NCBI GenBank assembly: GCA_043228905.1
Contig: JBHGNT010000017.1
Coordinates: 14,694,001-14,758,000, forward strand
Length of the DNA: 64,000 nt
Source of the DNA: Azolla caroliniana
Taxonomy: Eukaryota > Plantae > Polypodiophyta
Direction: 5' to 3'
Below, in pieces: positions 4,870 to 35,429 of the stretch. Within the stretch, counting starts at the first letter, position 1. Each line of letters opens with the position of its first letter. The notes below the pieces were generated by a model that saw nothing but the letters and a program-made list of their open reading frames with translations, did not search any database and was not told where the DNA came from. The position numbers and the translations under genes are program-made.

Positions 4870-5355
4870 ATCATATATTTGACAACACTTTCCATGATCA
4901 TGATTTCAATGGGAAGTGACCCCATCTCAAGAAGTGGGAGGGGTTTATGGTGTTTGTTTCTTGACTTGGAGAAACTTTGTAAGAAAATTTTGATTTTGGA
5001 CATTTTCAAACTCTTTCCAAGGGGACTTAGGGATGCTACCTTCCCATCCTTCCATCCCATAGAGAGCACTAGTGTCACCTAAGTGTCGAAATGGTATTTT
5101 TTGAGGAACCAACACTTAATTCTCCAAATGCATAATATACTCTTTTTCCCAGGGCTAGCGAATAACACATTCATTCCATCTATTATTTAAACATAAAGAC
5201 CAAGGTAAGCTTTCTACCATTTCAAGTGGCTCATTATTATTTGCATGGTTTATCCATTTTTGGGCTCTAGACAAGCATAATCTTTGTTTAGAGCTATTGA
5301 CACTATCTTAGTATGCATGCAAAATTCTTCCAATGCCCTCATAAACTTTTGCGCA
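4870..5355 (-). mobile_element. LINE (non-LTR) RT 3' fragment
   Basis: Continues the LINE at 22714-25379, with ~85 bp shared by both segments. Degenerate RT C-terminal coding sequence on the minus strand. Confidence 0.6.
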
Positions 5356-8283
5356 TCGGCTACGTCGATTTCGAACAGAGGTACGATCTTCGGATTATCC
5401 TGCAAGTATTGATCTACCTCTTCATCTGCTAATCCGTCCAGCATATTGACGCATTCGGCATATAGGGGTGTCAATTCCTTCCCGGTACACGTCCGTGGTT
5501 GTGTCGGTACCCGTACTTTTGCTTTTCCTTGCCGGAAGGTGATTATATTCTTCCTCCAGTTTTGTTTAATGTGCGCCGTTTTCAACCATGGCCGCCCCAA
5601 CAATAGTGGGTAAGCTCCTTGTGCCTGCAGTTGTAGCACTACTGCCGAGATGCAAAATGTGTGGCCACCGATCGTTACATCCAAATCTCGTATCAAGCCG
5701 GTCGGTCGCATTGAGCTTGTATCCGCCATCCGCAGCCAGAACGGGCATGGTTCCCACTCTTGGATTCCCAAGGTTTTGCACGTTCGGAGGCTAATCACAT
5801 TGACGCCGGATCCTCCATCTATTACTGTTCCAGGTAACTCCTTTCCCTTCACAATGGTTGTGATCGCCGGACTATTTGTGTCTACTACCGCCGGTCCCTC
5901 CTCCGGATTTGAGAAGAATGTTGGAGCCGGTGGTGTTTCTCCTGCCGTCCTGCCTGTCTTGAGTCCTTCTGTGAATCTGGGCACTAGCTGCAAGAGCCAT
6001 CCTAATGGCAGCGTGATTTGGCATTCCCGCAATGCTTGCCAGGTCGCATTTTCGAGCTGACTGCCATCGGCGAGCTCTTCGGTATTTTCCTTTTGCTATG
6101 CAAGCTCTGCCATGTTTTGTGCATTCGCCTTTTTTACCCATTCTGTTGCCTGCTTGCGGATGGCCTCTTGCACCTCCCATTCCGTCTCCTTACCCTTCGA
6201 TCTTGTGGTCACCTGTTGCAGGTCTACGACTTCGGCAACTACCATATTCACCTCTGGTCGTTTATCATAGCTCTTTGCTAGGCATTGATTACTATAATGT
6301 CCTTCTTGTCGGCAATAGTAGCAATATGCTTTCCGGGAGGTGCTGGATTCGGCATTGTTTCCTACTCCCGGTGGAGGACCTGCGGTAACGGCGGGGCTTT
6401 GATCCGGTTGGCTACTTGAGGCGCCCTTCTCCGGTTCCCGTAGGTGACCCCTTTTGTTGAAATGGCGTTTCTTTTTGTTCCGATACTCTTGACGGGGCTG
6501 GTCATCATGTCTGTCGTAGGCTTCCCATCGTTGGTTGTAACCGGGGGATTGGTCCCGATTGTATCTTTCATACTGTCCATTATACTCCCGGTACCGATCA
6601 TATCTCTCATACCGGTCAGGGTTGTCCCTATACCGGACATCCTGTGCTGGTCGGCATTGCTCTTCTCACCTCCAACTTTCTTCTTCCTCCTCCTTGGTAC
6701 TCCGTGGTTCGATTTGCAGAACCGGTGGTGCTTGGCGATTCAACAAATTGTACTCGCACTGCTCCATTGTGTGGTTCCTGGAATGGCACAGTAGACATTG
6801 CGACCGCATGGTACATTCTAGTGCTGAGTGTCCAGCATTTAGGCATGTTGTGCATTGAATAGCTTGTCGAAACCGGAGATCCTCATCAGTTGGTAACGCT
6901 CGTTGGAGTGCTCCCATTGTTAGCCAAGAGCTTGTTTTCTCCATTTCTCTAACCCAGTCGATGACCTGGTCGACGATACTTGTGCGAAAGTCGATGACTA
7001 TGCATACCGTACGTAGAGGTTCCCGGAGCGCGGCTAAGAATATAGCCTATGTTTCTTCCTTCAAAGGTGCTCGGGTAAGCTGACTGTGCATCCATTGAAA
7101 CCGGATGACAAACTGTAGAATGCTCTCCCCAAGGTTCTGCCGGATGGTATAAAATAGGTCCACCATTTCTCTCTGGTCCACCTCCTTCTGAAAGAAGTGC
7201 AAGAATTTAGCTTTCAGGTCCACAAAGGTGGTGATGGTGCCGGGGTCCTGCGTCCGGTGCCATCTGGTGGTCAGTCCTTCCAATGTCACGCCAAATTCGG
7301 TTATCTTAGATCGTTCCTCTTCGGCTGCGGTTAACTGTTGTGACACATGGTTCGCCTCCCATGTTTTTTGAAAAGCGTGAACATGAGCCTCCGCGTCCGG
7401 GTCATCCCTATACTTGGGGTACTGGAACGGCATGTCATCGTCCGGTGTTGGTGCGCAGGCTGGCGGTGTCGGTGGTCTTTCCTGCTCTTTCGTCGACGTC
7501 GGAAGTCGTTGTTGGTCCTCTGTCGGAGTCGGAGGTCTTTGCCGGTCCTCCTTCGGTGTTGCCAGCTCGACTTCCGGTGTCGGAGGTCTTTCTTTGTCCT
7601 CTTCCGTCTCCGAAGGTTGCTCCACGTCTAGTGCCGGAGGTTCCCGGTCTGACAATTCTGGTTCCGGTGTCGGTAATGTATCCGACTCCTCGTCCTGTGG
7701 TCCTTCCGGGGTGTCGTTACTGCTACGATAGTTCGTGTGCGCGTTGTAACCCCCTTCCGAATCCGATTCCAGCGCCGAAAATGCTTCGGATTCGCGGGCT
7801 CCTCCGGCCAAGGCCTGGAGAAGGGATTCCGCTTCCCGGAGACTGCTTAAGTTGCTTCCTTCGTCCGGGTAGGCGTTTTGTTGCAGACGGAGCGACTCCT
7901 CCGCCACTTTCAGGATAACTTTGGAAAATGGTCGATCCGATCAGATTTCTTCTGCCACTTGGTGGAAAGCCTCTCACCACCTTCGTCGTTCAACAAGTTG
8001 ACTTGCTCTCTCCGTAACTGGGTCGTCCGTTGGCCTAGTCATCCATTCCCGCCGTTGTTCACTGCGATTGTGCAGGAATCGTGGTCGCCAAAAACTATGT
8101 TAATCCTTAGGGCCGGACAACAGCCTAACACAGGGTGTCCACTTAAGACACTTCACCAAAGGGTGTTACAGCGAGATAACTTACGACACAACGCTTAATT
8201 GGACCTTAATCGGTTACTTAGTAATACGTCATTAACACGCGTAAGATATACAATAAGCACAGAACGGTGAACAATACTTAGTG
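5356..8283 (-). mobile_element. Ty3/gypsy 5' half: LTR end (8283-8098), PBS, gag with zinc knuckles, aspartic protease
   Basis: LTR end ...ggattaaca followed by PBS-like tttttggcgaccac. Gag ORF 7047-7907. CTTCLNAGHSALEC and CLLCHSRNHTMEQC knuckles in 6666-6944. Protease VIDGGSGVNVI...LLGRPWL in 5250-6032. Confidence 0.9.
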
Positions 8284-10042
8284 ATTAAACAAAACTGGAG
8301 GAAGAATATAATCACCTTCCAGCGGGGAAAAGCAAAAGTAAGGGTACCAACACAACCATAGATGGGTACCGAGAAGGAATTGACACCCCTATATGCTGAA
8401 TGCGTCAATATGCTGGACAGATTAGCAGACGAAGAGGTAGACCAATACTTGCAGGATAATCCGAAGATCGTACCTCTGTTCGAAATCGACGTAGCCGAAG
8501 CCGTATCACCATACATACTGCCACCGGACAGAGCCGACGAGGAACCAAATAAAGAAGTGATCCGGGAGCTACGGCAAGCACAAGAGGCGTTGGAAAGAGA
8601 AATGGTCGTATCGCAACGGGTTAAAGCATCCCAACTACGGAAGAGGCAAGAGCGGTGCAAATCGCCAAGGAAATGACTGCGGAGAACAAAACGGCAATGA
8701 TTACACTTCTCAAAGAATTTCGGGACGTGTTTGCCTGGTCTTACGAGGATATGCGAGGGCTCGATCCTCAGCTATATCAGCATCAAATACATTTGATCAA
8801 AGACGCCAAACCGGTAGCACAGCGACGGTACTGAATGAATCCAAATTACGCCGCCAAAGTCAAGGAGGAAATCGACAAGTTGTTGAGGGTTGGCTTTATC
8901 TGCCCAGTAAAGAAATCTACATGGCTGAGCCCAATAGTAGTCGTACCAAAGAAAAACGGAAAATTTAGAGTTTGTGTTGACTACCGTAAGCTTAACGCGG
9001 CGACGGTAACAAATGCATTCCCACTCCCATTTACAGATGGAGTTTTAGACGTAGTCACCGGCCATGAGGTATACAATTTCTTAGACGGATTCAGCGGATA
9101 CAACCAGATCCGAATGCACCCCGATGACCAGGAGAAAACGGCTTTCGTCACCGAATGGGGAGTGTTTGTTGCCGTAGTAATGATGTTCGGACTAAAAACG
9201 GCGCCGGCAACGTTCCAGAGGATCATCATGGAAATCTTTGGAGAATTCATACCGGCATTCATGCAGGTGTTTCTGGATGACTTTGTCGTCTATAGCCGGG
9301 AAGGAGATCACTTTCAGCACCTCCGACTGTGTCTAGAGAAATGTCGGGCTTATCGGCTAAGCTTGAATCCGGCAAAGTGTGTATTCGGAGTGTCAAGCGG
9401 GGCGCTATTAGGACACATTGTGAGCAAGGAAGGAATTGCCATGGACCCGGACAAAGTAAAAGCAATCTTAGAGGCACCGGCACTAACAACGGCCAAAGCA
9501 TTAAGCCGTTTCTTAGGCCAAATCCGGTGGCATAGCCGAATGCTCCGGTATCTGGCGAACCTAGCTACACCGCTGCATGATGCGGTACACTGAACACCGT
9601 TCCAGTGGACCGACACCAAAGACAAGGCGTACCGGGCACTCAAACTACTATTGTCGCAAGTGCCGGTAGTGCAACCCCCGGATTGGGCTAAGGAGTTTCA
9701 TGTGTTCGTGGATGCGTCCGACATTGCAATCGGAATCGCGCTGATGCAACTTACGGAGCCAAGGTGGTACCGACCTGTATATTACGCAAGCCAAAAGTTA
9801 TCCCAAGCCGAACGAAATTATTCCACCACGGAAAGGGAAGCTTTGGGCATGATCTACAGCGTGACAAAATTCAAACATTATTTGCTGGGAAGGAAATTTT
9901 CCTTCCATGTACGTCATTCGGCACTCCTCTATTTAGTTTCCAAAGTGTCACTAACCGGTAAGTTGGCACGGTGGACATTACTGTTGCAGGAATTTGAGTT
10001 TGAAATATTCCACCGACCCGGCATACAGCACGCAGTAGTAGA
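8284..10042 (+). pseudogene. Ty3/gypsy pol: RT and RNase H (frameshifts and stops)
   Basis: WLSPIVVVPKKNGKFRVCVDYRKLN, LDGFSGYNQI, MFGLKTAPATFQR, VFLDD, FVDASDIAIG, NYSTTEREAL, ARWTLLLQEF. Confidence 0.95.
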
Positions 10043-10597
10043 GGGTAAAAGCATGCGAGTGGAAACACTATTATAGCTAATTAGCTACTAAAATGGCCAT
10101 AGCTAATTAGCTATTTGTTTAGCTAGTGTTTTTTATGGGAAAATCAAATATTTGAAAAACTAATTTATGAAAAAACTCAAATATTTGAACTTCTGTTTCA
10201 GACGTAGTGGAACTTGGGGAATATCACCATCATCTAAGGTCGACTTCAATGTCATCAATTTCCTGTTTAGCCTAAGTCTGATTTTGAACGCAGATGGAGT
10301 ACTCAGAGCACGAACGCAGACATAGCTCCCGCAACAGCAAAAAATCGACATTGCAGATTGAGAGCTACAACACAGAACCCGCTCGATCATCGTCCAGGTA
10401 TGTTTCAGTTACAGAAACCCCAAACATTTGTTTTTTCTTTTTGACTACTGTCTGAACTTTGGTGCCGATTCATATTTCCCCAAAATCGAATAGGGCGAAG
10501 TCCTTGGAGTCCCATACAAGGATGTCTCGCAAATCGGGGAGTAGCAACAGGTGTGTTTATATTACTTTTTTTGTGTGTAATCCTGTCTTTAGTGATG

Positions 10598-11070
10598 ATT
10601 GGGGTTTCTGATTGAAATTTCTGATTAGGGTTTTTGTTTATAAATTGCTTATTAGAATTTCTGATTAGGGTTTGTGATTGAAATTTCTGATTAGGGTTTG
10701 TGATTGAAATTTCTGATTAGGGTTTTTGATTATAAATTTCTGATTAGAATTTCTTAATAGGGTTTCTGGTTACAAATTTTGATTACAAATTAGAATTTCT
10801 GAATAGGGTTTTTGTTTATAAATTTCTGCTTAGGATTTCTGATTAGGGTTTGTGATTGAAATTTTTTATTAGGGTTTCTGATTGAAATTTCTGATTAGGG
10901 TTTTTTATTATAAATTTCTGATTAGAATTTCTGAATAAGGTTTCTGGTTACAAACTTCTGATTACAGATTTTGATTAGGGTTTCTGATTTCAAACTTCTG
11001 ATTACAGATTTTGATTAGGGTTTCTGATTTCAAATTTCTGAATACAAATTATGATTAGGGTTTCTGATTT
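10598..11070 (+). repeat. Telomere-like / telobox-containing tandem array (GATTAGGGTTT(C/T/G)TGATT..., ~26-39 bp units)
   Basis: About a dozen TAGGGTTT cores inside a GT...AG intron (10550-11175). Confidence 0.8.
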
Positions 11071-12039
11071 GCTAAGTTAAAGATTTTGCACCATTTTTGT
11101 TGTTGTTGATTGGGGTTTTTGATTCTCACATATTCTGATTTTGCACTATTTCTGATTTCTGAAATGATATTTCAGATGGCTCATTCCTCCGTATACGAGA
11201 GTGCTAAACTTCGCAAAATTTTGCGAGACAAAGGAGGACTTCCACAACACCTATGGTCTGTCACTCGAGGGTGTTGACCCTGCTGTCCTAAGTGATAAAT
11301 TGATCAGTGATATAGACTGGATGACAGTATATACAGTGCCTAGAGCAAAGTTACTTCTGATGTTACAACAATTAGAAATAAGATTCAGGTAACTATTGTT
11401 TTGCTGGTATGTGATTGTGTTATAAATAACGGGTAAAATGTGCTAATCAAGCATTATCTGGAATAGGTTGCGCAACAGGAGCTTGAATTAGAGGGGCCAC
11501 TGGATCCCCAACGTAAAATAGAACTGCAAATAGAGATCCAGGTTCTTTCAATGAACCTGGACCTTCTAGGTGTAAATACTGTTGCAGATTACAATTTGGA
11601 TAAGCTTCAAGTAAGTTAACGATTCCTGAGCAAAGTTGGTGTATCTTTCAACAACAAGAATAATTAATCGGTAAATTTCTCTGTTGCGTTGAAGGAACAA
11701 TACATTCATCAAGAACAGGTAGTTAGCTGCCTTAAGAAGAAGCTACATTTTGTGGAGGGAATGGTAAGGACCAGACAGGATTTGGACCTGAACATTCTTG
11801 CTCCCTTACCAAATGAAGTAGAACCAGAAAATGATTTATTGACAGTTCAAGCACGTTGCATCGCTTGCGGGTTAGGTGTGGAGGACAAAACTGCGTCTTT
11901 GTTGGTTCACCTACAACCATGAAACCACACATACCATCTGCTTTGTTTTCAACATGCTTGTCGAATTGTTGCATTCTGTTTGGGAGATTGCAGTACAACT
12001 CTACCAAATGAGTGGAGAAAACTAACAGGTATACCATAC

Positions 12040-13770
12040 TGTAGCTAATAAGCTTAGTCTTTTCTAATTAGCTATCCTACTAGCTAATTAGCTACTGGCA
12101 GCTAATGAGCTACTAGCTAATTAGCTATCCTAGTAGCTAATTAGCTATGGTACTAGCTAATTAGCTAGTACCATAGTTGTGTAAAAAAGCTAAATAGCTA
12201 TCCTACTAGCTAATTAGCCACTGGCAACTAATTAGTTATCCTAGTAACTAATTAGCTACAGCCATAGTTGTGTAAAGTAGCTAATAAGCTATCCTAGTAG
12301 CTAATTAGCTATGGTACTAGCTAATTAGCTAGTACCATAGTTGTGTAAAAAAGCTAATTAGCTATCCTACTAGCTAATTAGCTACTCGCAACTAATTAGC
12401 TATCCTACTAGCGAATTAGCTATCCTAGTAGCTAATTAGCTACTGGCAACTAATTAGCTATCCTACTAGCTAATTAGCTATCATAGTAGCTAATTAGCTA
12501 CTGACATAGTTGTGTAAAGTAGCTAATAAGCTATGCTAGTAGCTAATTAGCTACTGGCAGCTAATTAGCTGTCCTAGTAGCTAATAAGCTATCCTAGCTA
12601 CTACATAGTTGAGAAAGTAGCTAATTAGCTTTCATTGTAGCTAATTAGCTATCCTAGCTACCACCATAGTTAGTAAAGTAGCTAATTAGCTATCCTAGCT
12701 ACTACCATAGTTAGTAAAGTAGCTAATTAGCTATCCTAGCTACTACCATAGTAGTGTAAAGTAGCTAATAAGTTATCCTACTAGCTAATTAGCTATCCTA
12801 GTAGCTAATTAGCTATGGTACTAGCTAATTAGCTAGTACCATAGTTGTGTAAAAAAGCTAATTAGCTATCCTACTAGCTAATTAGCCACTGGCAACTAAT
12901 TAGCTATCCTAGTAACTAATTAGCTACTGCCATAGTTGTGTAAAGTAGCTAATAAGCTATCCTAGTAGCTAATTAGCTACTAGCAGCTAATTAGCTATCC
13001 TAGTAGCTAATTAGCTATCCTACTAGCTAATTAGCTATCCTACTAGCTAATTAGCTAGTACCATAGTTGTGTAAAAAAGTTAATTAGCTATCCTACTAGC
13101 TAATTAGCTACTGGCAACTAATTAGCTATCCTAGTAGCTAATTAGCTATCCTACTAGCTAATTAGCTGCTGGCAACTAATTAGCTATCGTACTAGCGAAT
13201 TAGCTATCCTAGTAGCTAATTAGCTACTGGCAACTAATTAGCTATCCTACTAGCTAATTAGCTATCATAGTAGCTAATTAGCTACTGCCATAGTTGTGTA
13301 AAGTAGCTAATAAGCTGTCCTAGTAGCTAATTAGCTACTGGCAGCTAATTAGCTGTCCTAGTAGCTAATAAGCTATCCTAGTTACTACATAGTTGAGAAA
13401 GTAGCTAATTAGCTTTCATTGTAGCTAATTAGCTATCCTAGCTACTACCATAGTTAGTAAAGTAGCTAATTAGCTATCCTAGCTACTACCATAGTTAGTA
13501 AAGTAGCTAATTAGCTATCCTAGCTACTACCATAGTTAGTAAAGTAGCTAATTAGCTATCCTAGCTACTACCATAGTTGAGTAAAGTAGCTAATTAGCTA
13601 TCCTAGCTACTACCATAGTTGAGTAAAGTAGCTAATTAGCTATCCTAACTACTACCATAGTTGAGTAAAGTACCTAATTAGCTATCATACTAGCTAATTA
13701 GCTATCGTACTAGCTAATTAGCTATCCTAGCTTCTACCATAGTTTAGTAAAGTAGCTAATTAGCTATCCT
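12040..13770. repeat. Palindromic satellite (TAGCTAATTAGCTA core, ~20-bp period) filling a cargo-gene intron
   Basis: Dozens of copies of the 14-bp palindrome, with a ~0.78-kb higher-order duplication (12601 vs 13385). Bounded by donor GT at 12029 and acceptor AG at 13793. Confidence 0.95.
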
Positions 13771-14578
13771 AAATAACTGTCATGTTATTGTAGAATCTTG
13801 TGGATTAAGGACGGCACATGATGTGTCTGGTGCTGATGATGCTGCAACAGATGAGGATACTACTGCCAATGTGGCTGAAAGTAAGAGTCCTGCTATCACA
13901 TCTCCTTCAGATCAGCTACACCCTATTCTTTTGGAACAGTGTACTGAATTAGGCAACGATGTGAAATGCCATGAAATAGTGGAAACAACATGTAAAACTG
14001 AGGTTCACAACAACAGTGTTTATGAACACTTGATGCAACATTTCTTCGAGTCTCAAGACCTTGATTCCACTCCACCGAGCCCAACTACTGAAAATGTCCA
14101 AACAGATCCCTCTGTACTTGAAAAGCTAGTTCAAGAAACGGCTGATGTGCAATTAGCTGCTGAGGCGATGGGAAGGTTGTCGGAGGAGGACACACTTGCG
14201 CATTGGGTGAAAGAAGCAAGGCTAAATGGGGAACCAACCAGAAAAAGGCTGAAGAAGGGGCCACGATCGGGAACAAGACCAGTTACTCGGTCAAGGGGCC
14301 CAGACGTAGTGGAGCGAAATACTGTTTAGTTGGATATGATTGTTAGCTTAGGGATTTTGCTAGGGTTTTATGAAGTTTTACTATCCTGTTGGACAAGTAA
14401 AACCTCAGATTGGTTGTTGCTTGATCCACATTATGTAATGGAACTCTATGATGTTTTTCCAAGATAATTTGAAGAGTGTTGTTCTATGACTGAAACTCTT
14501 TGATGTTCAGGATATTGTTTTGTGAGACTATTAGTTACTTTGTGAGTGTGAATATGTTGGTGTTTTCTGATGTTGCAG

Positions 14579-15594
14579 AGTCTAAAGGGTTTGATTCTAT
14601 TGCTCGTAAGGCCAATGGCAGTGTGGATACTGTTGATGTTGCGGCATGTTTAAAGGGCCCCATCTTGAAAGTAGATGTAGCAACTGACACAAGTGATCTG
14701 GTCACACAAGTTGATCAAGCATGTAGCACGGATGACTTGGTGTTGCAGGTAGATGCAACATGTAGCACGGATGACTTGGTGTTGCAGGTAGATGCAGCAT
14801 GTGATACCAGTGGACTGATATCGAGCAGATCAGTAGCTACATGCACTGAGGTAATCCAAGGATTGATAACTAAGTCGACAAAACAAGAGCACCAGAATGT
14901 GAAGCTAGGCCCAACACAGTCGACTAGGGGTTTAAAGAGGAAAAGGACACCAGTTGTGTCAGCCGAACCTGAACTGATTGAGATTGATCGTATCCTACCA
15001 AAAAATGGTGTAACAGCGGCTCAGTTTCAGGAATGGAAACCTAAACCACTAGAAGTCGAAAGAAGAGCCTTGATCTTGGAGCTTGATAAAGTCTTGATGA
15101 GTGTGAGATATATGCAGCCAAGGAGGGACGCAAATCAGTTTCTAGAGTGGGCTGTGGAATACTTTGATTTGTTTATTTGGAGTGAAAAACCAAAATCAGA
15201 TGTGTGGAAGTGTTTGGCAAGATTCTTCCCAAAATGGCGAAGTCGTTTTAAAGGTCAATGGGCACGAGAAAATTGTGAGCAAATGGAAGCTGCAAGATTC
15301 AAGAGACTTTCTGATTTTTGGGCTACTTGGCCTGAATATAATGCCGACAATACATTGATTTTGGATACAGAACATTTCCGACACTACTTCAATATTCGGA
15401 GATGCTGTCTCATTCTACCCGAGGAAATGCCTGAACAGTACCTGGTGCAAATAGTGAGCTGCCAACTAGGTGCATGGTTGTGGACTCCATACCGAGCTCA
15501 ATATGCGGATAATATATGTAGACTCGTTCCACTGACTAGCAAGAGCTTAGCTGTTTATAGGAGATTTGTAGACATTTCCAATGGTAATTTATAA
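14579..15594 (+). CDS. FCP1/NIF (HAD-superfamily) phosphatase-like domain exon with degenerate catalytic motif
   Basis: ORF 14500-15594 with acceptor gttgcag at 14578. RALILELDKVL corresponds to the LVLDLDETL motif; PRRDANQFLEWAVEYFDLFIWS, WARENC, KRLSDFW and NTLILD follow NIF-domain order. N-terminal 13-aa repeats (VDAACSTDDLVLQ-like). Confidence 0.65.
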
Positions 15595-15941
15595 ATATGT
15601 AAAGAGATGGCATTATTCAATGAAGAATTTAATTACTTGTTCCCACTGTACTTATCTACTGTGTAATTTGAGGAATATGTTGCAGATTGTTGATTTCATG
15701 CTATTGATGACTATTTAGCTATTGACAGCTAATTAGCTGCATTTGTACAGCTAATTAGCTACTGATGACTATTTCGCTATAACTTATAACTTAAAACTTA
15801 ACAAAAAAGACATGATTTTATTGAGAAAGAAGCACAGAAAGCAGACTGTATACAAGAAATTGATTCCAAACGAATTTATTTAACTGTTTTCGCGAAATAC
15901 ATGTTTGTTTTACAAGAGAACATGGTAAGTGCTACTTGTAG

Positions 15942-17783
15942 CTACAAATTCCATGGCATACTATTGTAAATACATTCATACACATTAGCACCAACAGTGT
16001 ATAAACCAGAGCAGCTATTGTATTTTGACATTGGGACGTTGATGCACCTGACCAAATGAGAGTACATATACGTCGTTGGTTTGTCTTCTAACAGCCTGTA
16101 CACATATTCGTAGTCATCTAGTTTTGCATAAAAAATGCCTTCGATGTAGAATGTCCCGGCAGATACAAAATTTCCCCATGCATCTACAATATTCTGCCTT
16201 GCACACTGTTTACTAACCGTGCACTTTAATATATAGAAATCAGCACCCTCTGAATTGCCTTCTTCAGCATTTACAGCGAAGTTATCCCCAACGTTCAGGA
16301 CATCACTCAAAGTATCTCCAAGTCCCTCATATGTGAAGTCAGCATTCTGCCCTGTTTCTCCATCAACTGCTTCCTTATCATTCAGAGTGTGATACTCCCA
16401 ATTCTGAATGTATGCTTTGTTTAGACAATATCTCCAATTTCCCTGCACACAATGGAAGCAAAAACAAGTCAATTCTCTAACCACAATACAATGACCATCC
16501 AACCTGGAATAACCGCGAACAGCATGCAGAGATCGCAATTCGGGAATTCCTTGGCACTCCCAGGTCTTCTCCCTATTTACTTCATCTATCTTCACTTCCC
16601 AAAATTCACGTTTGATATCTCGGACTTGCGAGGAATAAACACCTGTGGCACTCGTTGACATATTTGTTCTTAAAAATTCAACTACATGTGATGCACAATT
16701 CATGTGCACACCATCTGTCTTTAGTTGTTCATGGGTAAGTGCCCGCTTTATAACAGCCCCTGCACCATCATGTTCACCTTTACCATGGCCAGACCCAAAA
16801 AAATTCCATCTCATCTCCAAACCTGTTATAGCAGGATACCTCCCCACAAAATAAAATGGACGTCGAGCCTTGAATTGTGACGCAGCTCCGTCAGACCAGA
16901 CCCAATGTTGAGTAAGCTCCAAACGTTGAGCTAATAACCACTGCCAATGTAACTTAAAACAGTGTTGGACGAACAAGGTATCATGCTTCTTATCATCGGA
17001 AATAAAGAAATGAATTACTTTTTTAACATCACCTGAAACTCGAAAATATGTTATGTGCACAAAAATGGTTACCTGAACTGAACACCAATGCATAGATTGA
17101 ATTTCATTCTGCTGCTTGAAAGTATAATTCTCTACGAAATCTACTACTGAGACTACTACATCATTTGGGAAATCAGATATGCAAGTCTTAAACTGATGGG
17201 CCTGCCATGAATAAATGAAGTTGTGTTTAATGAACTTTCCTAGAGATACTACAAACAGAGACACCAAATCCCTTGGTTTAAGCATCTTCCGAACTAGATC
17301 CTTTCTTTTACACACCTTTCCTTCGAAATTGGTGTTCACTGACTCAAATAACTTCACAGAGATCAATATTTCACTACTCAATTCATTTGGACACCACCTA
17401 AATCTAGTAGGGCCACAATCTTGACATAAACCCATGACACATTTATGAATATGGAAGATAGCGTCAGTTTCTCTCAGACACAATATTGAATCTAATAAAT
17501 AACTCATGGAAGAGATAACGTGCTCAGATGATTTACACTCCTCTTGCGGGCTTGATCGACAGATTGGGCACCCACATGTGCAAACTGTATTAGTTAGGGA
17601 TGCGCTATGGTGACGTAGTAGATTAACAGAGTCCTTCAGAAAACCCATCTGTACATGGTAAATGCAACAACATGTGTATCGATCCTTTAAGCGTCTCACA
17701 AAGTGTGGCTTAAGAGACTCGAATGTTCGTAGTTGAACTTTGATAGTTGGATGCATTCGTTTGAACCTAATAAATAAATCGAC
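15942..17783 (-). CDS. Sola2-like DDD transposase (main exon, ~610 aa)
   Basis: Open 604-aa ORF, extended in frame to an acceptor at 17784/17785. Motifs DFVENY, WSDGAASQFK, GSGHGKGEHDGAGAVIKR; Cys-rich CCCIYH, CxCxCxxC and CFCFHC regions. Confidence 0.85.
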   Translation of the reverse strand, partial: VDLFIRFKRMHPTIKVQLRTFESLKPHFVRRLKDRYTCCCIYHVQMGFLKDSVNLLRHHSASLTNTVCTCGCPICRSSPQEECKSSEHVISSMSYLLDSILCLRETDAIFHIHKCVMGLCQDCGPTRFRWCPNELSSEILISVKLFESVNTNFEGKVCKRKDLVRKMLKPRDLVSLFVVSLGKFIKHNFIYSWQAHQFKTCISDFPNDVVVSVVDFVENYTFKQQNEIQSMHWCSVQVTIFVHITYFRVSGDVKKVIHFFISDDKKHDTLFVQHCFKLHWQWLLAQRLELTQHWVWSDGAASQFKARRPFYFVGRYPAITGLEMRWNFFGSGHGKGEHDGAGAVIKRALTHEQLKTDGVHMNCASHVVEFLRTNMSTSATGVYSSQVRDIKREFWEVKIDEVNREKTWECQGIPELRSLHAVRGYSRLDGHCIVVRELTCFCFHCVQGNWRYCLNKAYIQNWEYHTLNDKEAVDGETGQNADFTYEGLGDTLSDVLNVGDNFAVNAEEGNSEGADFYILKCTVSKQCARQNIVDAWGNFVSAGTFYIEGIFYAKLDDYEYVYRLLEDKPTTYMYSHLVRCINVPMSKYNSCSGLYTVGANVYECIYNSMPWNL

Positions 17784-17809
17784 CTGCGTAATAAAGGGGA
17801 ATTAGTTAT

Positions 17810-19020
17810 TCTCGTAACTAGCTAACTATCCTAGTAGCTAATTAGCTATTCTAGTAGCTAGTTAGCTATTCTAGTAGCTAATTAGCTATCATGGTAGCTA
17901 ATTAGCTGTCCTAGTAGCTAATTAGCTATCATGGTAGCTAATTAGCTGTCCTAGTAGCTAATTAGTTGTCCTAGTAGCTAATTAGCTATCATGGTAGCTA
18001 ATTAGCTGTCGTAGTAGCTAATTAGCTATCATGGTAGCTAATTAGCTATTCTAGTAGCTAATTAGCTATCATGGTAGCTAATTAGCTGTCGTAGTAGCTA
18101 ATTAGCTATCATGGTAGCTAATTAGCTGTCCTAGTAGCTAATTAGTTGTCCTAGTAGCTAATTAGCTATCATGGTAGCTAATTAGCTGCTCTAGTAGCTA
18201 ATTAGCTATCATGGTGGCTAATTAGCTTTCCTAGTAACTAATTAGCTATCATGGTAGCTAATTAGTTGGTCTAGTAGCTAATTAGCTATCATGGTAGCTA
18301 ATTAGCTGGTCTAGTAGCTAATTAGCTATAATGGTGGCTAATTAGCTTTCCTAGTAACTAATTAGCTATCATGGTAGCTAATTAGTTGGTCTAGTAGCTA
18401 ATTAGCTATCATGGTAGCTAATTAGCTATCATGGTGGCTAATTAGTTGTCCTAGTAACTAATTAGCTATCATGGTAGCTAATTAGCTGGTCTAGTAGCTA
18501 ATTAGCTATAATGGTGGCTAATTAGCTATCATGGTAGCTAATTAGCTATCATGGTGGCTAATTAGATGTCCTAGTAACTAATTAGCTATCATGGTAGCTA
18601 ATTAGTTGGTCTAGTAGCTAATTAGCTATAATGGTGGCTAATTAGCTATCCTAACTAATTAGCTATCATGGTAGCAAATTAGCTGGTCTAGTAGCTAATT
18701 AGCTATCACGGTGGCTAATTAGCTATCCTAGTAAGCTAATTAGCTATCATGGTAGCTAATTAGCTATCATGGTAGCTAATTAGCTTTCCTAGTAGCTAAT
18801 TAGCTGGTAATAACGAAATAACAAACTAGCTACCATGATAGCTAACTAGCTTCCAGTACAACTAATTATCTGGTAGTACCTAAATTAGCTATTGAGAATA
18901 GCTAATTAGCTATCATGGTAGTAGCTATTGAGAGTAGCCAGTTACCTATGTAGTAGCTATCATAGTAGCTAATTAGCTATCATGGTAGCTAATTAGCTTT
19001 CCTAGTAGCTAATTAGCTGG
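17810..19020. repeat. Palindromic satellite with strict 20-bp period (TAGCTAATTAGCTA plus TCATGG- or TCCTAG-type spacer) upstream of the transposase main exon
   Basis: About 50 units in register (17820-18800); alternating spacers give a 40-bp higher-order unit. Confidence 0.95.
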
Positions 19021-19036
19021 TAATAACGAAACCTTT

Positions 19037-19402
19037 TTAAGTAACATCACTATTAAGTAACATCATTAGACTAGACCTTTTTAAGACAAGATCATCTTCT
19101 GACCTGCTCATGGATACGAAACTATTACGAAGATTATTTACTAAAATAGATGATATGTTTGCATTAAGACCATCACAATCAACTAAGTCCTTTATCGATG
19201 GATCATTACATATTCCATAAAGTACTACCTTCTTTTCTTCATTGCTGATGTGCTTGGTTTGAACATTGAAATAGTCTACAACCTTTCTCTCTATGATGGT
19301 AGTCGCATTACTTACATTCTCAGCTAAACTATCCTTACCTTTACTGAGTGTGGCTTTCGTATCCTTCAACAATTGACGATGTTTCCTTTTTTTTCTGCCC
19401 AA
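19037..19402 (-). CDS. Probable N-terminal exon of the transposase (basic NLS-like start), truncated
   Basis: 121-aa ORF starting GRKKRKHR, on the same strand as and upstream of the transposase. It does not splice in phase to the main exon as assembled. Confidence 0.45.
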   Translation of the reverse strand: MGRKKRKHRQLLKDTKATLSKGKDSLAENVSNATTIIERKVVDYFNVQTKHISNEEKKVVLYGICNDPSIKDLVDCDGLNANISSILVNNLRNSFVSMSRSEDDLVLKRSSLMMLLNSDVT

Positions 19403-19839
19403 TAGTTTCGTATGGCTTGTTGTGTCCTGATAACATCATCCCTATCCTTATGATCATTGAGGGGTAATTCTAAACACCCTTCTTCCCCTTCCATTTGGTT
19501 GGACATGTTAAAACCCTAAATTTCCAGAAAAAAAAACAAGTATTAAAGATGGCTATGGGCAACAACAATACACAAAAATATTCCACACAATACACAAGAT
19601 TAGACACAACAATACACAAGATAATCAATAGACAGAAAAGTTATTGCAATCCAAGACCGAACAGTAGAGGATTTCACTCCGTTGGATCCAACAGTTGAGG
19701 AGGCGATCCAAGACCGACCAATGGCAACAACTGAGTGTAGAATGTTGCCGTTGGATGAGTGAACTCCGTCAAATCGAAATGTGGAAGCAATCCGGGACTG
19801 GACAATAGTGGCAACTGAGTATAGAATGATGGCAATGGA

Positions 19840-20495
19840 GGAGAGAACCCCGTCAGATTGAACAGTTACCGATGATGCTTGAAACGCACATAGAAGGCAC
19901 TTGAGAATAGAGTGGCATAGAGAAGAGAACCCCGTCAGATTGAACAGTTACCAATGATGCTTGAAACGCATAGTAGCGGCCCCTGAGTGAGAGTGGAAAA
20001 GAGAAGAGAACCCCGTCAGATTGAATAGCTCTTTGATTATGCTTGGAACGCACAGTAGCAGCCCCTGAGTGTAGAGTGGCAAAGAGAAGAGAACCCCGTC
20101 AGATTGAACAGCTCTTTGATGATGCTTGGAACGCACAGCAGCGGCCCCTGAGTGTAGAGTGGCACAGAGAAGAGAACCCCCTCAGATTGAACAACTCTTT
20201 GATGATGCTTGGAACGCACAGTAATGGCCCCTGAGTGTAGAGTGGCACAGAGAAGAGAACCCCCTCAGATTGAACAGCTCTTTGATGATGCTTGGAATGC
20301 ACAGTAATGGCCCCTGAGTGTAGAGTGGCACAGAGAAGAGAACCCCGTCAGATTGAACAGCTCTTTGATGATGCTTGGAATGCACAGTAGTGGCCCCTGA
20401 GTGTAGAGTGTCACAGAGAAGAGAACCCCGTCAGATTGAGCAGCTCTTTGATGATGCTTGGAACGCACAGTAGCGGCCCCTCAGTGTAGAGTGGC
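19840..20495. repeat. 83-bp tandem repeat (~8 copies)
   Basis: Unit GAGAAGAGAACCCCGTCAGATTGAACAGCTCTTTGATGATGCTTGGAACGCACAGTAGCGGCCCCTGAGTGTAGAGTGGCACA, decaying leftwards. Confidence 0.95.
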
Positions 20496-20848
20496 GGCAG
20501 GTGGACTCGATAGGGTTTAGCAACAGTGGTAGCAACTAACCCACAGTACTCAACTAGAGATGGCCTACGTGATGTGGCAAAGGATCATGCATAATGGACC
20601 TAGGAATTCGATATATAATTTATGGTACACATTTATGGTGCACACATCAATTTATGTTGCACATTTATGGCACTCATTTACATATGTAATTAAAACACTC
20701 TAGTATTTTCAATGGTAGTTTTTTGCATACTTAATTTATTAATGATGGCTTTTTACTAAAATGACTATTTATCAATGGTAGCTTTTTGCATAGCTAATTA
20801 GCTATGTCAAGGACATAGCTAATTGTTTCCACTCGTATGCTTTCACCC

Positions 20849-22445
20849 TAGACTATTTGAGCCGGTTAGATTCCGGCGAGACTGGTGACGGAGTCCCGGA
20901 CGAGTTTCCGGATGCTAAGCTATTTCGAGTCACCGCGGAAACGGCAACAGATGAAACGGTGGCACAAGAAGAAAAGTGGCTAACGAATATGCAACAATTT
21001 CTGAGCACCGGATTGCCTCCGGAGGAGATGACCTGGGACGAGAGGAAACGCCTGGCGGTACAAAGCCAGCACTTCTGTTTAGTACGGGACACGCTATACC
21101 ACAAAGGCGCGGACGGTATATGGCGACTGGCGGTGCGCAGTGACGAGAAGGATATAATACTACGAGAAGCACACTGCGGAGTCGCCAGAGGCCATTACGC
21201 CGGAGATGCTACAGCAAGGAAGATATGGCAAAGTGGCCTATGGTGGCCGACAACATTGAAAGACGCAGTCCAGTACGCTAAAGAATGTGATCTATGTTAG
21301 CGAATGGGCCAGCCAACCGAACAAGCTAGGATACCGCACCAGCCGGTACTGTCGTTAGAACCATTTCAGAAATGGGTCTGGATTTTGTGGGTCCATTCAA
21401 ACCATCAGTAATGAGAACCGACAACCGGTATGTGATCGTAGCTACGGATTACTACACGAAATGGGTAGAAGCCAAAGCCTTTCGTGACAACATCGCAGCA
21501 TCGACAGCGAAATTCTTGTATGAATACATCTGGTGCAGGTATGGATGCCCGATCGAGCTAATAAGTGACCAAGGAGGGCACTTCCTCGGCCAAATGGTGG
21601 AAAGCTTGACGTCGTTCTATGTCGTGGTGCATAAACGGAGCACGCCATACTATCCGCAAGTAAACGGGTTAGCCGAGTCGACGAATAAAACGCTACAGAA
21701 TATCCTTCGGAAAGTCATTAACGAAAACCGGACAGACTAGAATACGAAGTTGCACAGTGCCCTATGGGCTTACCGGACAGCTTACAAAACAAGAATCCAA
21801 ACCACACCGTTCCGGCTAGCATTCGGATTGGAGGTTGTCATGCCAGTAAAGTTCCAGGTTCCGAGGTTACGGATTCAGATTAGGAAACGGTTAAACGAGA
21901 AGGAATCGGAGGCAATTCGGTTAGCAGCTCTGTGTGAACTAGAAGAACACTGACTAGCAAGTATCATGCACCTGGAACTGGAGCAGCGGCGAAGCAGGGC
22001 GTTTGTGGATCGCCACCGAAAAGGAAATGAAAAGATGTTTGGAATCGGCAAGCCGGTACTAGTGTTCCAGACCCGGATGGGAAAGATGCTGGGGAAACTG
22101 CGGTTTCGGTGGACCGGACCGTACTGGATCACACGTGAGTTCAATGGATCCTACCAGTTAGGGACACTTGCCGGCGAGGTCCTGGGTAAGTGGGTCAACA
22201 GATTTCGACTAAAGCCATACAAGGGACCCATGCCAAGGAACCCATTTGAACAAGGAAAGGCCGATGTCAAACCAGATACCGGCATACCGGAAACAACGGC
22301 AACCCGATTAGCAATCGGCAACAACGAAGCCGGTAAGGGGGACAAAGAGCCGGCACACGGGTTGGATAAGAGGTTGGCAAACCGTCACGAGGCTGGCAAG
22401 ATTCCTCATTCGGGTAAGGGTCTGTTAGGACCGGAGACAAATTAA
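20849..22445 (+). pseudogene. Ty3/gypsy integrase region (continuation of pol)
   Basis: AHCGVARGHY...WWPT...CDLC zinc finger, GLDFVGPF, TKWVEA, ISDQGGHF, YYPQVNGLAE, WTGPY (GPY/F); several stops. Confidence 0.95.
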
Positions 22446-25413: not shown

Positions 25414-28100
25414 GAAGAAGTGTGAACAAGTCATTTGATTGAAACAGTGTTCGATTGAAATTTGGGAATATGAGCATAGATGTAATAAATAGCATATAAT
25501 TAAACTCTCTCTCTCTATCTATCTATCTATCTATCTCTCTAACGTTGGCCCCACTATAAGATGAAAATGCCAAAATATATCAAAGCACATCTTACTTTCC
25601 GATGAGCCTAAACACTTCGTCAAACTTGCTCACGCAAGTTAGGTGTTGAGGTAGCGTCATGCCATCATCACCCTAATATGAAGATATGTAAGCTACATGC
25701 AATGAAACCTTTGGTGGATGATGAATATCACTTACTTCTTGTATGCTCAACGTATAAGGTAATTTGCAAGAATTAGACAAGCATGATAATTTAAGTGTCA
25801 TATTCAAATCCCTAAAGCAAGGCAATTGCATTTGTGCGCGCATTATTTTCACACACAGAGTTTTTACTAGAGAGTAGTAACCCCCTTTCTTAGGAAGGAG
25901 TCGCATGCAAGACGATATATGTATTTGGTCACATAGGCCTAAGTTAACCACCTCGTACACGATAAAAAATCTATTCTTTTCCCTTATAGGAAGTGGTGCA
26001 AAATTATGTGCAAAACCTCTAAGAGAAAGTTAAATTATTTGCAATTTGGTCAAGCCTATACTCTTATGATGTGTGTGTGTGTGTGTGTGTGTGATAGTAA
26101 AAGCACACAATTATTGTATATAAAACCCACTTGTTACAACTTCTTAGTCTCCTATGTATGTGTGCATGTGTGTCTCAAAAGACGAGACACCTAAGATGTA
26201 ATCTCTTGTTTGGTTTTATAGGCCATTTTGTCCTCTTGAAAGACGTATATATCCATAGATTGACCCATGCGTGATATTCGTGAAATGCCCCAAGAATATT
26301 ACAAAACCATTCATTTTAAATTTATATAAAAAATTTATTTAATTCACTAAAACATTAATTAAATCACTAAGACAATAATTAATTCACTAATACATTGCTT
26401 AATTCATTAAAATTTAATTAATTCATTAATAATACATTAACAATAAATTAATTAGGGTTTCTGCTAAACTTAGGGTGTCAGTGAAACTGTGAGTTTGTAG
26501 CCGAGAACAGGATGTAGGATTAGCGTAGAGCATGAGAGGGAGGTGAGGATGCATGCCAAAAAGAAGAAATACGGTCAAAATTAGGATTTTGATTGAAACT
26601 AGGGTTTCAGCCAAAACCCTAATTTTTTGGCCGAGAACAGGATGCAAAGGGAGGCGAGGGTGTAAGCACACACAGAGAACAGTGTGAGGCCCCTCGCTTG
26701 CTGCTTGCTATTCACTCACTCACACAATTTGTTTTTCCAAAGAAAACAATTATTTTTTCGAAAAAAGAAAAGAAAATGAATACATTTAAATGTATTCATA
26801 TTCGCATTCCTAGCATTAGTGGGGCTTGCCCTATGAATGCGAATATGTCAATCTATGTATATATCAAGATGTTTTGGGAGATTATATGGAGAAATCTTAA
26901 GAGAAAGTTAAATTATATGCAATTTTGTTAAAGCTTGAAGAGGAGGCCTTTGATTCAGTACATACAATATACTAGCGCTAGGTAACCTAATTATTTAATT
27001 TATCAAGAGTTAACATGATTTAGATCGTTTAAAAAAGAAAAAAAAACTTTATCTTCTCATAAGGTCATCCCATGCTATGTATTTTCATATCATGTGTTTT
27101 TTATATAGCTTTAACTTTGTTATGGTTTTTATGAATATGGTGTTCCTAATATGGGATTGTGAAAGTGAATGGCCCATTTCATACTTACACCTAAAATAAA
27201 GTGCATTTGAAGTTGAAAGGTGACATAAAAATATATATAGAAGGGCAAGTTTGACCGTAAATACATATCCTTAGGTGTAGTGTAAGCAAAGTATTCCTCA
27301 ACATACAACCTTGGGTTGTTTGATACCATGAAAACCATTGGGGCTATAATTGATATTGCACCAAAGTTTTCTCTACAGGAGGGTAATTTATGATATTTAA
27401 CGTTGTATTATGAGTATGTATAATATTTTCCCAAAGACCACAATCATTTGCCAGTCTTATAACTCTACAATAAAATTCATAGCAACCTTTCTAATGAAGA
27501 ATCGAAAATGTTATTGTTTTGCAATGCAACTCTAACTCTTCAATACATGCATTCTTGAATTGAAAATTCGGTTGTTGTATTTCAATCTTCAATATATGTG
27601 TGCTTTCAATGCATGTATTTGTTCTTATTTATTTTAATGTAAAGCATGACATGTTGCATTGCAATCGTCACCGATTGCATCATAGATCCCCCCCAAGGAG
27701 GATGGATGTATATATATATGTAGGTCAACACACATATATCGCATTAAAGGTATTCATGTTTCTTGTGCAAGAAGTAAGTCGGGAATAGGTGTGTGAGACT
27801 AGGACATGGAAGACGAAAGGTGACACTATTCGAGAAAATAATAAATCGGGGGGCGATTTGAACAAGAGAGGACTACTCCTTGATGTTTGGACGACGAAGG
27901 TAAGTAACGTTTGGAAATTCGAAGAAAACAAAGAGTGGAGGAGGGTGGGGCACATAACACAAACAAATACCTTCCATTTGCTTGACCATTAGTTTTTGCA
28001 TACTTGAAGAATTAGATTGAGGGAGGTGATTAAGGAGAGTGATTAAGGAAGGTGATTAAGGAGTAGTACTTCTGAATTCTAAGGAGAAAGCTTAATTAAG

Positions 28101-29069
28101 ATGGGCACCTTGATAGGCCATGTGGCACCTGGGGCAGGGTTTATCCTCATAGGTCTTTGGCACCTTCTCAACACAATCAAGGCCTATGCCCGACAAGGTG
28201 CTCGGGGTTTCAAATCGCGGCCGTGGTTCCCGGCTGCGCCGCCCGGACATCCCGGCCGGCGCGCCGAGCTCTACCTCATCATCTTGGGCTCGCTCCTCTC
28301 GATCGCGTCCGAGCTCTTCATTTTTCCACACCAGCACCACCCCTTCGTCTCACACACCGACCTCTCGATCCCTGCCCAACACCTCAATAACTTCGAGCAC
28401 TCGACCATCTCCCTCTTCTTGCTCATCTATGCGTCCGTGGCCGCACTCGAGGACGGAGGCGCACTCAATCTTGCCGATGGGTTTGTCCACTCCCTCGGCT
28501 CACTCGCATTTGCGGTCGAGCTCTTGCTCTTCCATCTCCACTCGGCCGACCACATGGGCCTCGAGGGCCACTACCACTGGCTCCTCCAATTGATCGTCGC
28601 GGCATGCCTCGTGTTCACACTTGTAGAGATTCACGTGCCCCGGAGTTTCCTTGCATCCCTTGGACGGGCGACTTCGCTCGTCTTCCAAGGGATTTGGTTC
28701 ATTCAAATGGGGCTAGTGCTTTGGGTCCCAAGGTTTACGCCCACTGGATGCGCCATGCAAGACGCGGGTTACCACCGTGTGGTGCGGTGCGAAGGTGAGG
28801 GTGCCTCGCATCGTGCCAAGGCACTCGCGACTTTGCAATTCGCTTGGTACCTCGCCGCTCTTTGTGCCGCACTCATCACTTGGATCACGCTCACGCTTCG
28901 TGGCCCACATGCCGAGATGTCCAAGTCTTATGAGGCCCTCCGCTTCCACCGCGATCCCGATGATGACGACGAGTCCGACACAAGTGCCTCCTTTAAGTTG
29001 GCGCTTCCAAGAGCCACATCCCTAGAGGGCCTCCATGGAGGCAAATCCATGGTCAACCTTCCTAGGTAA
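28101..29069 (+). CDS. TMEM45/DUF716-family multi-pass membrane protein (intronless, 322 aa)
   Basis: MGTLIGHVAPGAGF..GLWHL, HLNNFEHSTIS, LFHLHSADHMGLEGHYHWLLQ, FQGIWF, RAKALATLQF; GC-rich intact ORF. Confidence 0.93.
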   Translation: MGTLIGHVAPGAGFILIGLWHLLNTIKAYARQGARGFKSRPWFPAAPPGHPGRRAELYLIILGSLLSIASELFIFPHQHHPFVSHTDLSIPAQHLNNFEHSTISLFLLIYASVAALEDGGALNLADGFVHSLGSLAFAVELLLFHLHSADHMGLEGHYHWLLQLIVAACLVFTLVEIHVPRSFLASLGRATSLVFQGIWFIQMGLVLWVPRFTPTGCAMQDAGYHRVVRCEGEGASHRAKALATLQFAWYLAALCAALITWITLTLRGPHAEMSKSYEALRFHRDPDDDDESDTSASFKLALPRATSLEGLHGGKSMVNLPR

Positions 29070-34982: not shown

Positions 34983-35429
34983 TTTGTTTGTTGGCCTACT
35001 ATAAGAGAGAGAGAGAGAGAGAGAGAGAGGTTGGGCTATGGTGTCTGGTTTTTGTGTGTTGGTTGATAGGTATACTATAGATGGGTTATCTCTTTACCTA
35101 TATATACTCATATATAGCTTGTATATATACATATATAGTGTATGTGTGTGTGTATGCTTTGTGTGTTCGAATCCTAGCAAAAGCAAGTTACACACAATTA
35201 GGAAAGAGAGATTTTCTTTTAGACAATGTGGACACTACTTTTGGAGAGAAAGAGAGAGAGAGAAAGAAAGAAAGAAAGATATATTAACGTCTTCTAAGAC
35301 CAAATTTGGCCCATGAGACAATTGGTTTACAATAAAAATGGGGTATCTACCCATTCATTTATTGAAAGTAAAAATTAAAATAAAATAAAATAGAACGTAA
35401 GCTAAAGAGTTCTAGAAAATGTGGACACT

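Follow-up and report, generated by a model that had tools for sequence, protein, structure and literature searches.

Why would a DNA transposon carry, within its introns, kilobase-long arrays of the short palindrome that also marks its own ends? The question is raised by a 64,000-nucleotide stretch of the Azolla caroliniana genome (contig JBHGNT010000017.1, positions 14,694,001 to 14,758,000, hereafter the window), in which a Sola2-type transposon flanked on both sides by TAGA occupies positions 10043-20848 and ends in 25-bp terminal inverted repeats (TIRs). In the reading that we favor, to which we give a probability of about one half, both arrays would be amplified copies of the subterminal palindrome of this Sola2 family, placed in predicted introns and acting as dense clusters of putative binding sites for the family's own transposase. 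The arrays themselves are a real feature and part of a clade-wide pattern, a stronger footing than observation of a single copy. The 14-mer TAGCTAATTAGCTA occurs in 60 exact copies in the window compared to none in 100 shuffles, and in 126 copies when up to two mismatches are allowed, all of them within 10040-20860 (69 in array 1, 52 in array 2, two in the spacer between the convergent genes at 15726 and 15748, two at the left end and one at the right end). The relevant features are the following.

10074..10113, no strand assigned: two subterminal 14-mers (starts 10074 and 10100), 26 bp apart
12029..13793, plus strand: predicted intron with array 1 (about 12061-13772; 69-70 motif copies; periods of 18, 20, 33, 41 and 42)
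15700..15780, no strand assigned: motif variants in the spacer separating the convergent genes
17784..19040, minus strand: transposase-intron remnant with array 2 (17826-19019; 52-58 copies; 20-bp period), its splice donor deleted
20791..20824, no strand assigned: TGTC-N3-GACA with a subterminal 14-mer (20791) and a half site (20816) around it, directly abutting the TIR

The original prediction, made from the letters of this stretch, had placed the motif inside both TIRs, in the convergent-gene spacer and in two arrays and had tied it to the element; both points hold, no copy being present in the window outside the transposon. Its coordinates were right within a few bases, save that the second left copy starts at 10100 (10099 being the A of a 15-mer), and both arrays are where it put them, with the extents listed above replacing 12040-13770 and 17810-19020. 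The 20-bp period that it called strict is dominant (44 of 51 steps in array 2 and 35 of 68 in array 1), and its equation with two helical turns is a loose fit to unit lengths of mostly 18-22 bp. Also upheld was the proposal that 12029-13793 is a phase-correct intron: the predicted intron begins with GT and ends with AG, joining its exons preserves the frame, and similarity to the relatives P0081 and P0082 stops at the same residue as the exon preceding it. Among array units, the core CTAATTAG is 87-100% conserved and the spacer between cores 41-90%. A density map places the motif in tandem repeats in introns and in intergenic and terminal non-coding DNA, with family motifs in exons at background level only (0-2 copies). 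Cytosine contexts are sparse in the window arrays (about 2% CG and 7% CHG), and CG cytosines are scarcer in arrays than in exons at six of six loci and in the window, a poverty that could be explained by decay of methylated cytosines or by mere motif composition. Joints within array 1 (12074 to 13562 and 12074 to 12628) seen in contigs of DNA runs may represent length variants, or else repeats that were misplaced. The array pattern was found in none of the viral contigs.

Related families were compared at the best 80 of 413 loci from a scan, falling into 39 clusters including the window, and a quick-search tree was built from 35 loci (about one per cluster, five short clusters being left out) and seven proteins. 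An array in a sister copy, as the original prediction would have it, was found in L001 (transposase 96-96.7% identical), which carries the same array in the same transposase intron, 78% alike. What is new is that the transposase introns of related families hold arrays too, built of different motifs, each motif recurring in the family's own subterminal region or behind its transposase stop. L002 (60%), the sister family of that in the window, has a different array in its transposase intron, the unit of which, ACTAATAGTGCT, also lies just inside the L002 TIR; L006 repeats AGGTGAAA in the intron and carries it in its end; in L052 and L066 a different intron holds the array, with TTAGTACTAA as its unit, and the L052 end carries TTAGTACTAA as well. 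In all four close families with a recovered end, the array matched the family's own subterminal 100 nt inside the TIR (window p 0.002, L002 0.002, L006 0.008, L052 0.002), and the only cross-family signal in the array-versus-end matrix of close families was that of the L002 array on the window ends (p 0.03-0.04). When introns were compared, in an unbiased manner, to the 600 nt behind the transposase stop, the own spacer was matched above all cross scores in three of the eight families with a repeated intron, namely the window (18 matches versus at most 4), L004 (32 versus at most 6) and L007 (22 versus at most 12). The motif is confined to element ends, introns and the 3′ spacer, and varies by family in step with the ends. 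The window, L001, L002 and L004-L008 form one clade (Shimodaira-Hasegawa-like approximate likelihood ratio test 99, quick tree), L052 falling outside of it. Motifs are common to sister pairs (TAGCAT in L004 and L005, TGGTAC in L007 and L008, TAATTAG in the window and L002), unit lengths cluster at 18-22 bp in the window, L002, L004, L005, L008 and L052, and the arrays of L002 and L005 are one-directional.

What, then, might bind the motif? Two exons bear on the transposase.

15942..17783, minus strand: catalytic exon of a Sola2-type DDD transposase (D215, D298 and D339 of the exon)
19043..19510, minus strand: upstream transposase exon, truncated at the position of L001 exon residue 156 and lacking the helix-turn-helix (HTH)-coding part

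The original prediction overlooked a deletion by which the array-2 intron lost its donor and the upstream exon its final third: compared to L001, the window lacks L001 559 to about 905, corresponding to upstream-exon residues 157-251, the splice donor and the beginning of the intron, and contigs of run X1 continue as L001 does at the loose end 19043. Having lost both HTH and splice donor, the window copy is dead. In the L001 upstream exon a putative HTH lies at residues 150-188 (HTH_29 E 4e-5), and a low-confidence model of this N-terminal exon has helices at 161-168 and 172-183 with a predicted local distance difference test score (pLDDT) of 67. This pLDDT 67 model yielded no Foldseek match under E 0.001, and its best fold comparison, Z 6.7 to a repressor (root-mean-square deviation 3.0, 71 aligned), was within background. 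The second HTH helix varies among families. At the position of the array-2 intron, the intron is absent in 10 loci, 89-92 nt long in six and 0.3-3.1 kb in the rest; that this predicted intron is real is well supported. Contigs on the element from three of four runs guessed to be RNA contain no joint 12028/13794 or into 17783, and as they leave the arrays nearly uncovered they are uninformative either way.

The motif, which lies 7 bp from the TIR or touches it, is most simply a transposase site because it touches the TIR, is palindromic and changes with a transposase whose HTH helix changes. The likeliest binder appears to be the transposase N-terminal HTH, with the accessory protein resembling RING and NIF described below as the rival binder, and the arrays are likely to be family-specific landing pads for the transposase. 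Under the mechanism that we propose, the N-terminal HTH would bind the palindrome as a dimer, at the ends first, for pairing. Motif copies might then be seeded in non-coding DNA and grow by slippage or unequal exchange, and the resulting clusters would be retained for loading transposase onto cognate copies and helping to keep them transcribed and unmethylated. Titration of the transposase, the sponge of the original prediction, would follow secondarily from this binding. Self-activation through transposase loading is favored on account of two precedents. The transposase of AtMu1 both activates its cognate copies and lowers their methylation, and TnpA requires dense motif clusters (10.64898/2026.08.24.746577). 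Spm TnpA and AtMu1 resemble the window family in HTH binding to clustered family-specific motifs, putative in the latter, and set a precedent for a transposase as activator; their clusters and effect are terminal, whereas the sites in the window are mostly intronic kilobase arrays (10.64898/2026.08.24.746577).

Several points weigh against this account. The HTH matches are below Pfam cut-offs. The element grows minisatellites anyway, as evidenced by its 13/40-bp and 83-bp arrays, which are unrelated to the motif, and palindrome cores can be maintained by template switching without selection. No match was obtained between the L052 array and the end of the related L045 (p 0.19), and among distant families with a candidate end, array and end matched in none of five, these ends being uncertain and the copies decayed. 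In the unbiased comparison a repeated intron was present in only 8 of 31 families, and L002 and L006 failed the spacer test. The close families were initially chosen by eye, and the units and the motifs used for exon counts were picked after the arrays had been viewed. The similarity of motifs between sister families is not independent evidence, given their common ancestry. Finally, in the AtMu1 and TnpA precedents the sites bound are terminal and not intronic (10.64898/2026.08.24.746577). The two unrelated arrays are as follows.

10596..11069, no strand assigned: 13/40-bp array (TTTCTGATTAGGG) in an accessory-gene intron, without match to the subterminal regions
19838..20495, no strand assigned: 83-bp tandem array without relation to the motif, located on the 5′ side of the transposase exons

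The core of the 13/40-bp array, CTGATTAG, differs from CTAATTAG by one base; its comparison to the ends was not significant.

The strongest rival, somewhat improbable in our estimate, holds that the arrays are a neutral by-product: the end motif, taken as a transposase site, is occasionally copied inside the element, and a short AT-rich palindrome expands by slippage where introns tolerate it, yielding arrays without function. It accommodates the two unrelated arrays just listed, the fast turnover (78% between the window and L001 against 96.7% in the exon), the absence or small size (<100 nt) of the same intron in other families, the 23 of 31 families without a repeated intron, and the lack of an array in most of the distant families. 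It is less at ease with the four families, and three kinds of site, in which the amplified unit is the end motif of the family concerned, with motif copies standing in many different flank contexts (4-13 distinct ones per intron), and with the clustering of unit lengths at 18-22 bp in six families. Tetris is reportedly an example of tandem repeats arising within a DNA transposon. Satellites born inside DNA transposons likewise form internal arrays with fast turnover (PMC9659126); the window unit differs from them in tracking the family's own subterminal motif.

A second rival, which we consider unlikely, is that an accessory protein binds the motif and lifts silencing in the manner of VANC, for example by ubiquitinating or dephosphorylating chromatin or polymerase factors. 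The candidate gene is made up of two parts.

10160..14329, plus strand: 5′ part of the accessory gene (start not fixed), with an N-terminal domain of unknown type, a coiled coil, a RING-like finger and an acidic linker
14579..15594, plus strand: NIF/FCP1-like HAD domain exon (PF03031, E 2.7e-7)

The NIF/FCP1-like exon is likely the 3′ part of the accessory gene, an assignment made because a RING-like finger and NIF occur in one protein in the fern proteins P0091 and P0109; a splice joining the two parts was not found in the window copy. A single protein of about 800 residues combines four modules in fern relatives: the N-terminal domain, the coiled coil, the RING-like finger and the NIF-like domain. 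The window gene product is 48% identical to P0091 over 42 residues, its RING matches are below cut-off, and the predicted model of its N-terminal domain has a pLDDT of 38. In the window copy the gene is disrupted twice, near 11343 by a deletion and at 11920 by a TGA; in family contigs, loose ends stand at 11342/11345 and an A>C change at 11922 is found in all four runs. The accessory gene has the standing of a fixed passenger: L004 and L006 have a NIF-like partner adjoining their transposase, one fern has 56 relatives (the named ones all from Adiantum nelumboides), and GT..AG spliced joints at 10395/10492, 10547/11173 and 11386/11465 occur in contigs of a relative from two runs guessed to be RNA. 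Speaking further for such an accessory factor, the layout of the arrays equals that of VANC targets, described as short, fast-diverging, family-specific tandem motifs in introns and in intergenic and terminal non-coding DNA (PMC5735166, PMC10398659). Set against it are a motif that touches the TIR, where the transposase would be expected, an L002 gene end beside the spacer that has no NIF match, and the finding of no DNA-binding or VANC-type Pfam family in seven full-length accessory relatives. VANC-family proteins carry DUF1985/DUF287 domains, and a profile search detected no Pfam match to these in the window exons or the same seven relatives, though a more distant likeness in structure may exist. 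No longer homologues of the NIF domain were found, and atlas searches gave only leads below 0.8. As an aside, the catalytic DxDxT motif is altered to DLNG or ELDK in the accessory family (window 10160-15594; P0091, P0109).

Of the analogy to VANDAL elements drawn in the original prediction, what stands is that the pattern recurs in related families, with motifs of their own that are tandem, lie in the same non-coding compartments, are scarce in exons and differ between families; the element is nevertheless of Sola2 and not Mutator type, without a recognised VANC domain, its TIRs are intact (23/25) rather than degenerate, its duplication is of 4 bp, and its motif is palindromic and doubles as a TIR-adjacent motif. 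That intronic RNA hairpins might yield small interfering RNAs for self-restraint or as decoys, also raised in the original prediction, is very improbable, for although in seven of seven 200-nt windows folding is far below that of shuffled sequence (z -7.9 to -15.3), any palindrome array folds likewise, array 2 has no perfect inverted repeat of at least 21 nt and array 1 palindromes are at most 32 nt, CG and CHG cytosines are few in the arrays, the arrays of L002 and L005 are one-directional, and the match to the ends is left unexplained.

Returning to the proposed loading of arrays with transposase, the Mutator (VANC; PMC5735166, PMC10398659) and CACTA (TnpA; 10.64898/2026.08.24.746577) elements of flowering plants are the known sources of sequence-specific anti-silencing. 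If our reading is true, the same architecture in a fern Sola2 element would have originated independently for a third time, the amplified unit here being the end-binding site. More tentatively, Sola2 transposons of seed-free plants may have arrived independently at a VANC-like anti-silencing code specific to each family: the end-binding motif would have been amplified into helically spaced, CG-poor intronic arrays co-diverging with the HTH, the passenger resembling RING and NIF possibly being recruited as effector. The window together with L001, L002, L004, L006, L007 and L052 offers, in its different motifs and HTH helices, a ready specificity matrix, and would provide, as far as the literature searched goes, the first binding code for Sola2 transposases. 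That literature, in which few subscription papers were included and the original Sola paper was not, was found to describe no motif arrays for Sola elements.

The boundaries of the element are defined by the following features.

left 10039..10042, right 20849-20852, no strand assigned: target-site duplication TAGA
10043..10067, plus strand: left TIR, 25 bp, beginning GGGT; 23 of 25 bases match the right end
20824..20848, minus strand: right TIR

Empty-site joints (10039 to 20850) were present in contigs of all four DNA runs. GGG..CCC ends with a 4-bp duplication, which is read from one complete insertion, are favored over AGGG..CCCT ends with a 2-bp one because the match to another insertion ends after 20848. 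Both element ends carry GGG, and GGGT..AGCA is likewise found at the 5′ ends of L002, L006, L045, L050 and L052. Sola2 termini are 5′-GRG. The element is of Sola2 type by its transposase motifs, duplication and ends, on which the class assignment rests, the tree containing no named Sola2 transposase. The transposase exon (15942-17783) has no Pfam match and 80 relatives, the named ones chiefly from a liverwort, ferns and conifers; its invariant columns, compared by eye, agree with the published Sola2 alignment (PMC3627910). In line with Sola2, the element displays DFxENY, QxE(I/V)QSxHW, ISDD..HD, SDGxxxQ and WxFFxxxHGKxxxDG, short TIRs and the 4-bp duplication that Sola elements make (PMC3627910, PMC10741241). 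Unlike them, it is a spliced two-gene plant element with an accessory gene resembling RING and NIF and with motif arrays, and its duplication is TAGA rather than AWWT. All 30 bins, those of the arrays among them, were covered in four DNA runs (three species labels) with hundreds of variant places, which indicates a many-copy family. A contig of run X19 joins the two subterminal motifs (10080-20786), skipping 10705 bases, and is likely a short non-autonomous derivative formed via recombination between end motifs.

With regard to other ends, three families (window 20801-20824; L002 1814-1845; L006 63-95) retain a TGTC-N3-GACA core directly inside the TIR on the transposase side, while the flanking arms change with the family motif. 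A blind search for TIRs with target-site duplications in long loci gave nothing usable, the window's own ends not being in the top rows, and partner ends for L020, L028, L033 and L062 were not found. Long inverted arms in L063, L069 and L073 look like unrelated structures.

The insertion site of the transposon lies in the pol gene of a Gypsy element, between the regions for RNase H and integrase. This host element is itself nested and rearranged (5250-10038 and 20853-22445), with gag/protease-like frames on the minus strand at 5250-7940 and an inverted 218-bp match between 5353-5570 and 8284-8501. At L002 950-1789, the L002 element sits in the reverse transcriptase frame of a long interspersed nuclear element, a second case of nesting in a retroelement. 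Elsewhere in the window, 28083-29069 is presumably an intronless host gene for a membrane protein like TMEM45, and 34566-35093 is what we take to be the first exon of a host gene like that of GDP-mannose 3,5-epimerase. A Copia-type retrotransposon occupies 52917-58452, with long terminal repeats 95.8% alike over 673 bp, 54-bp repeats inside and pol frames on the minus strand.

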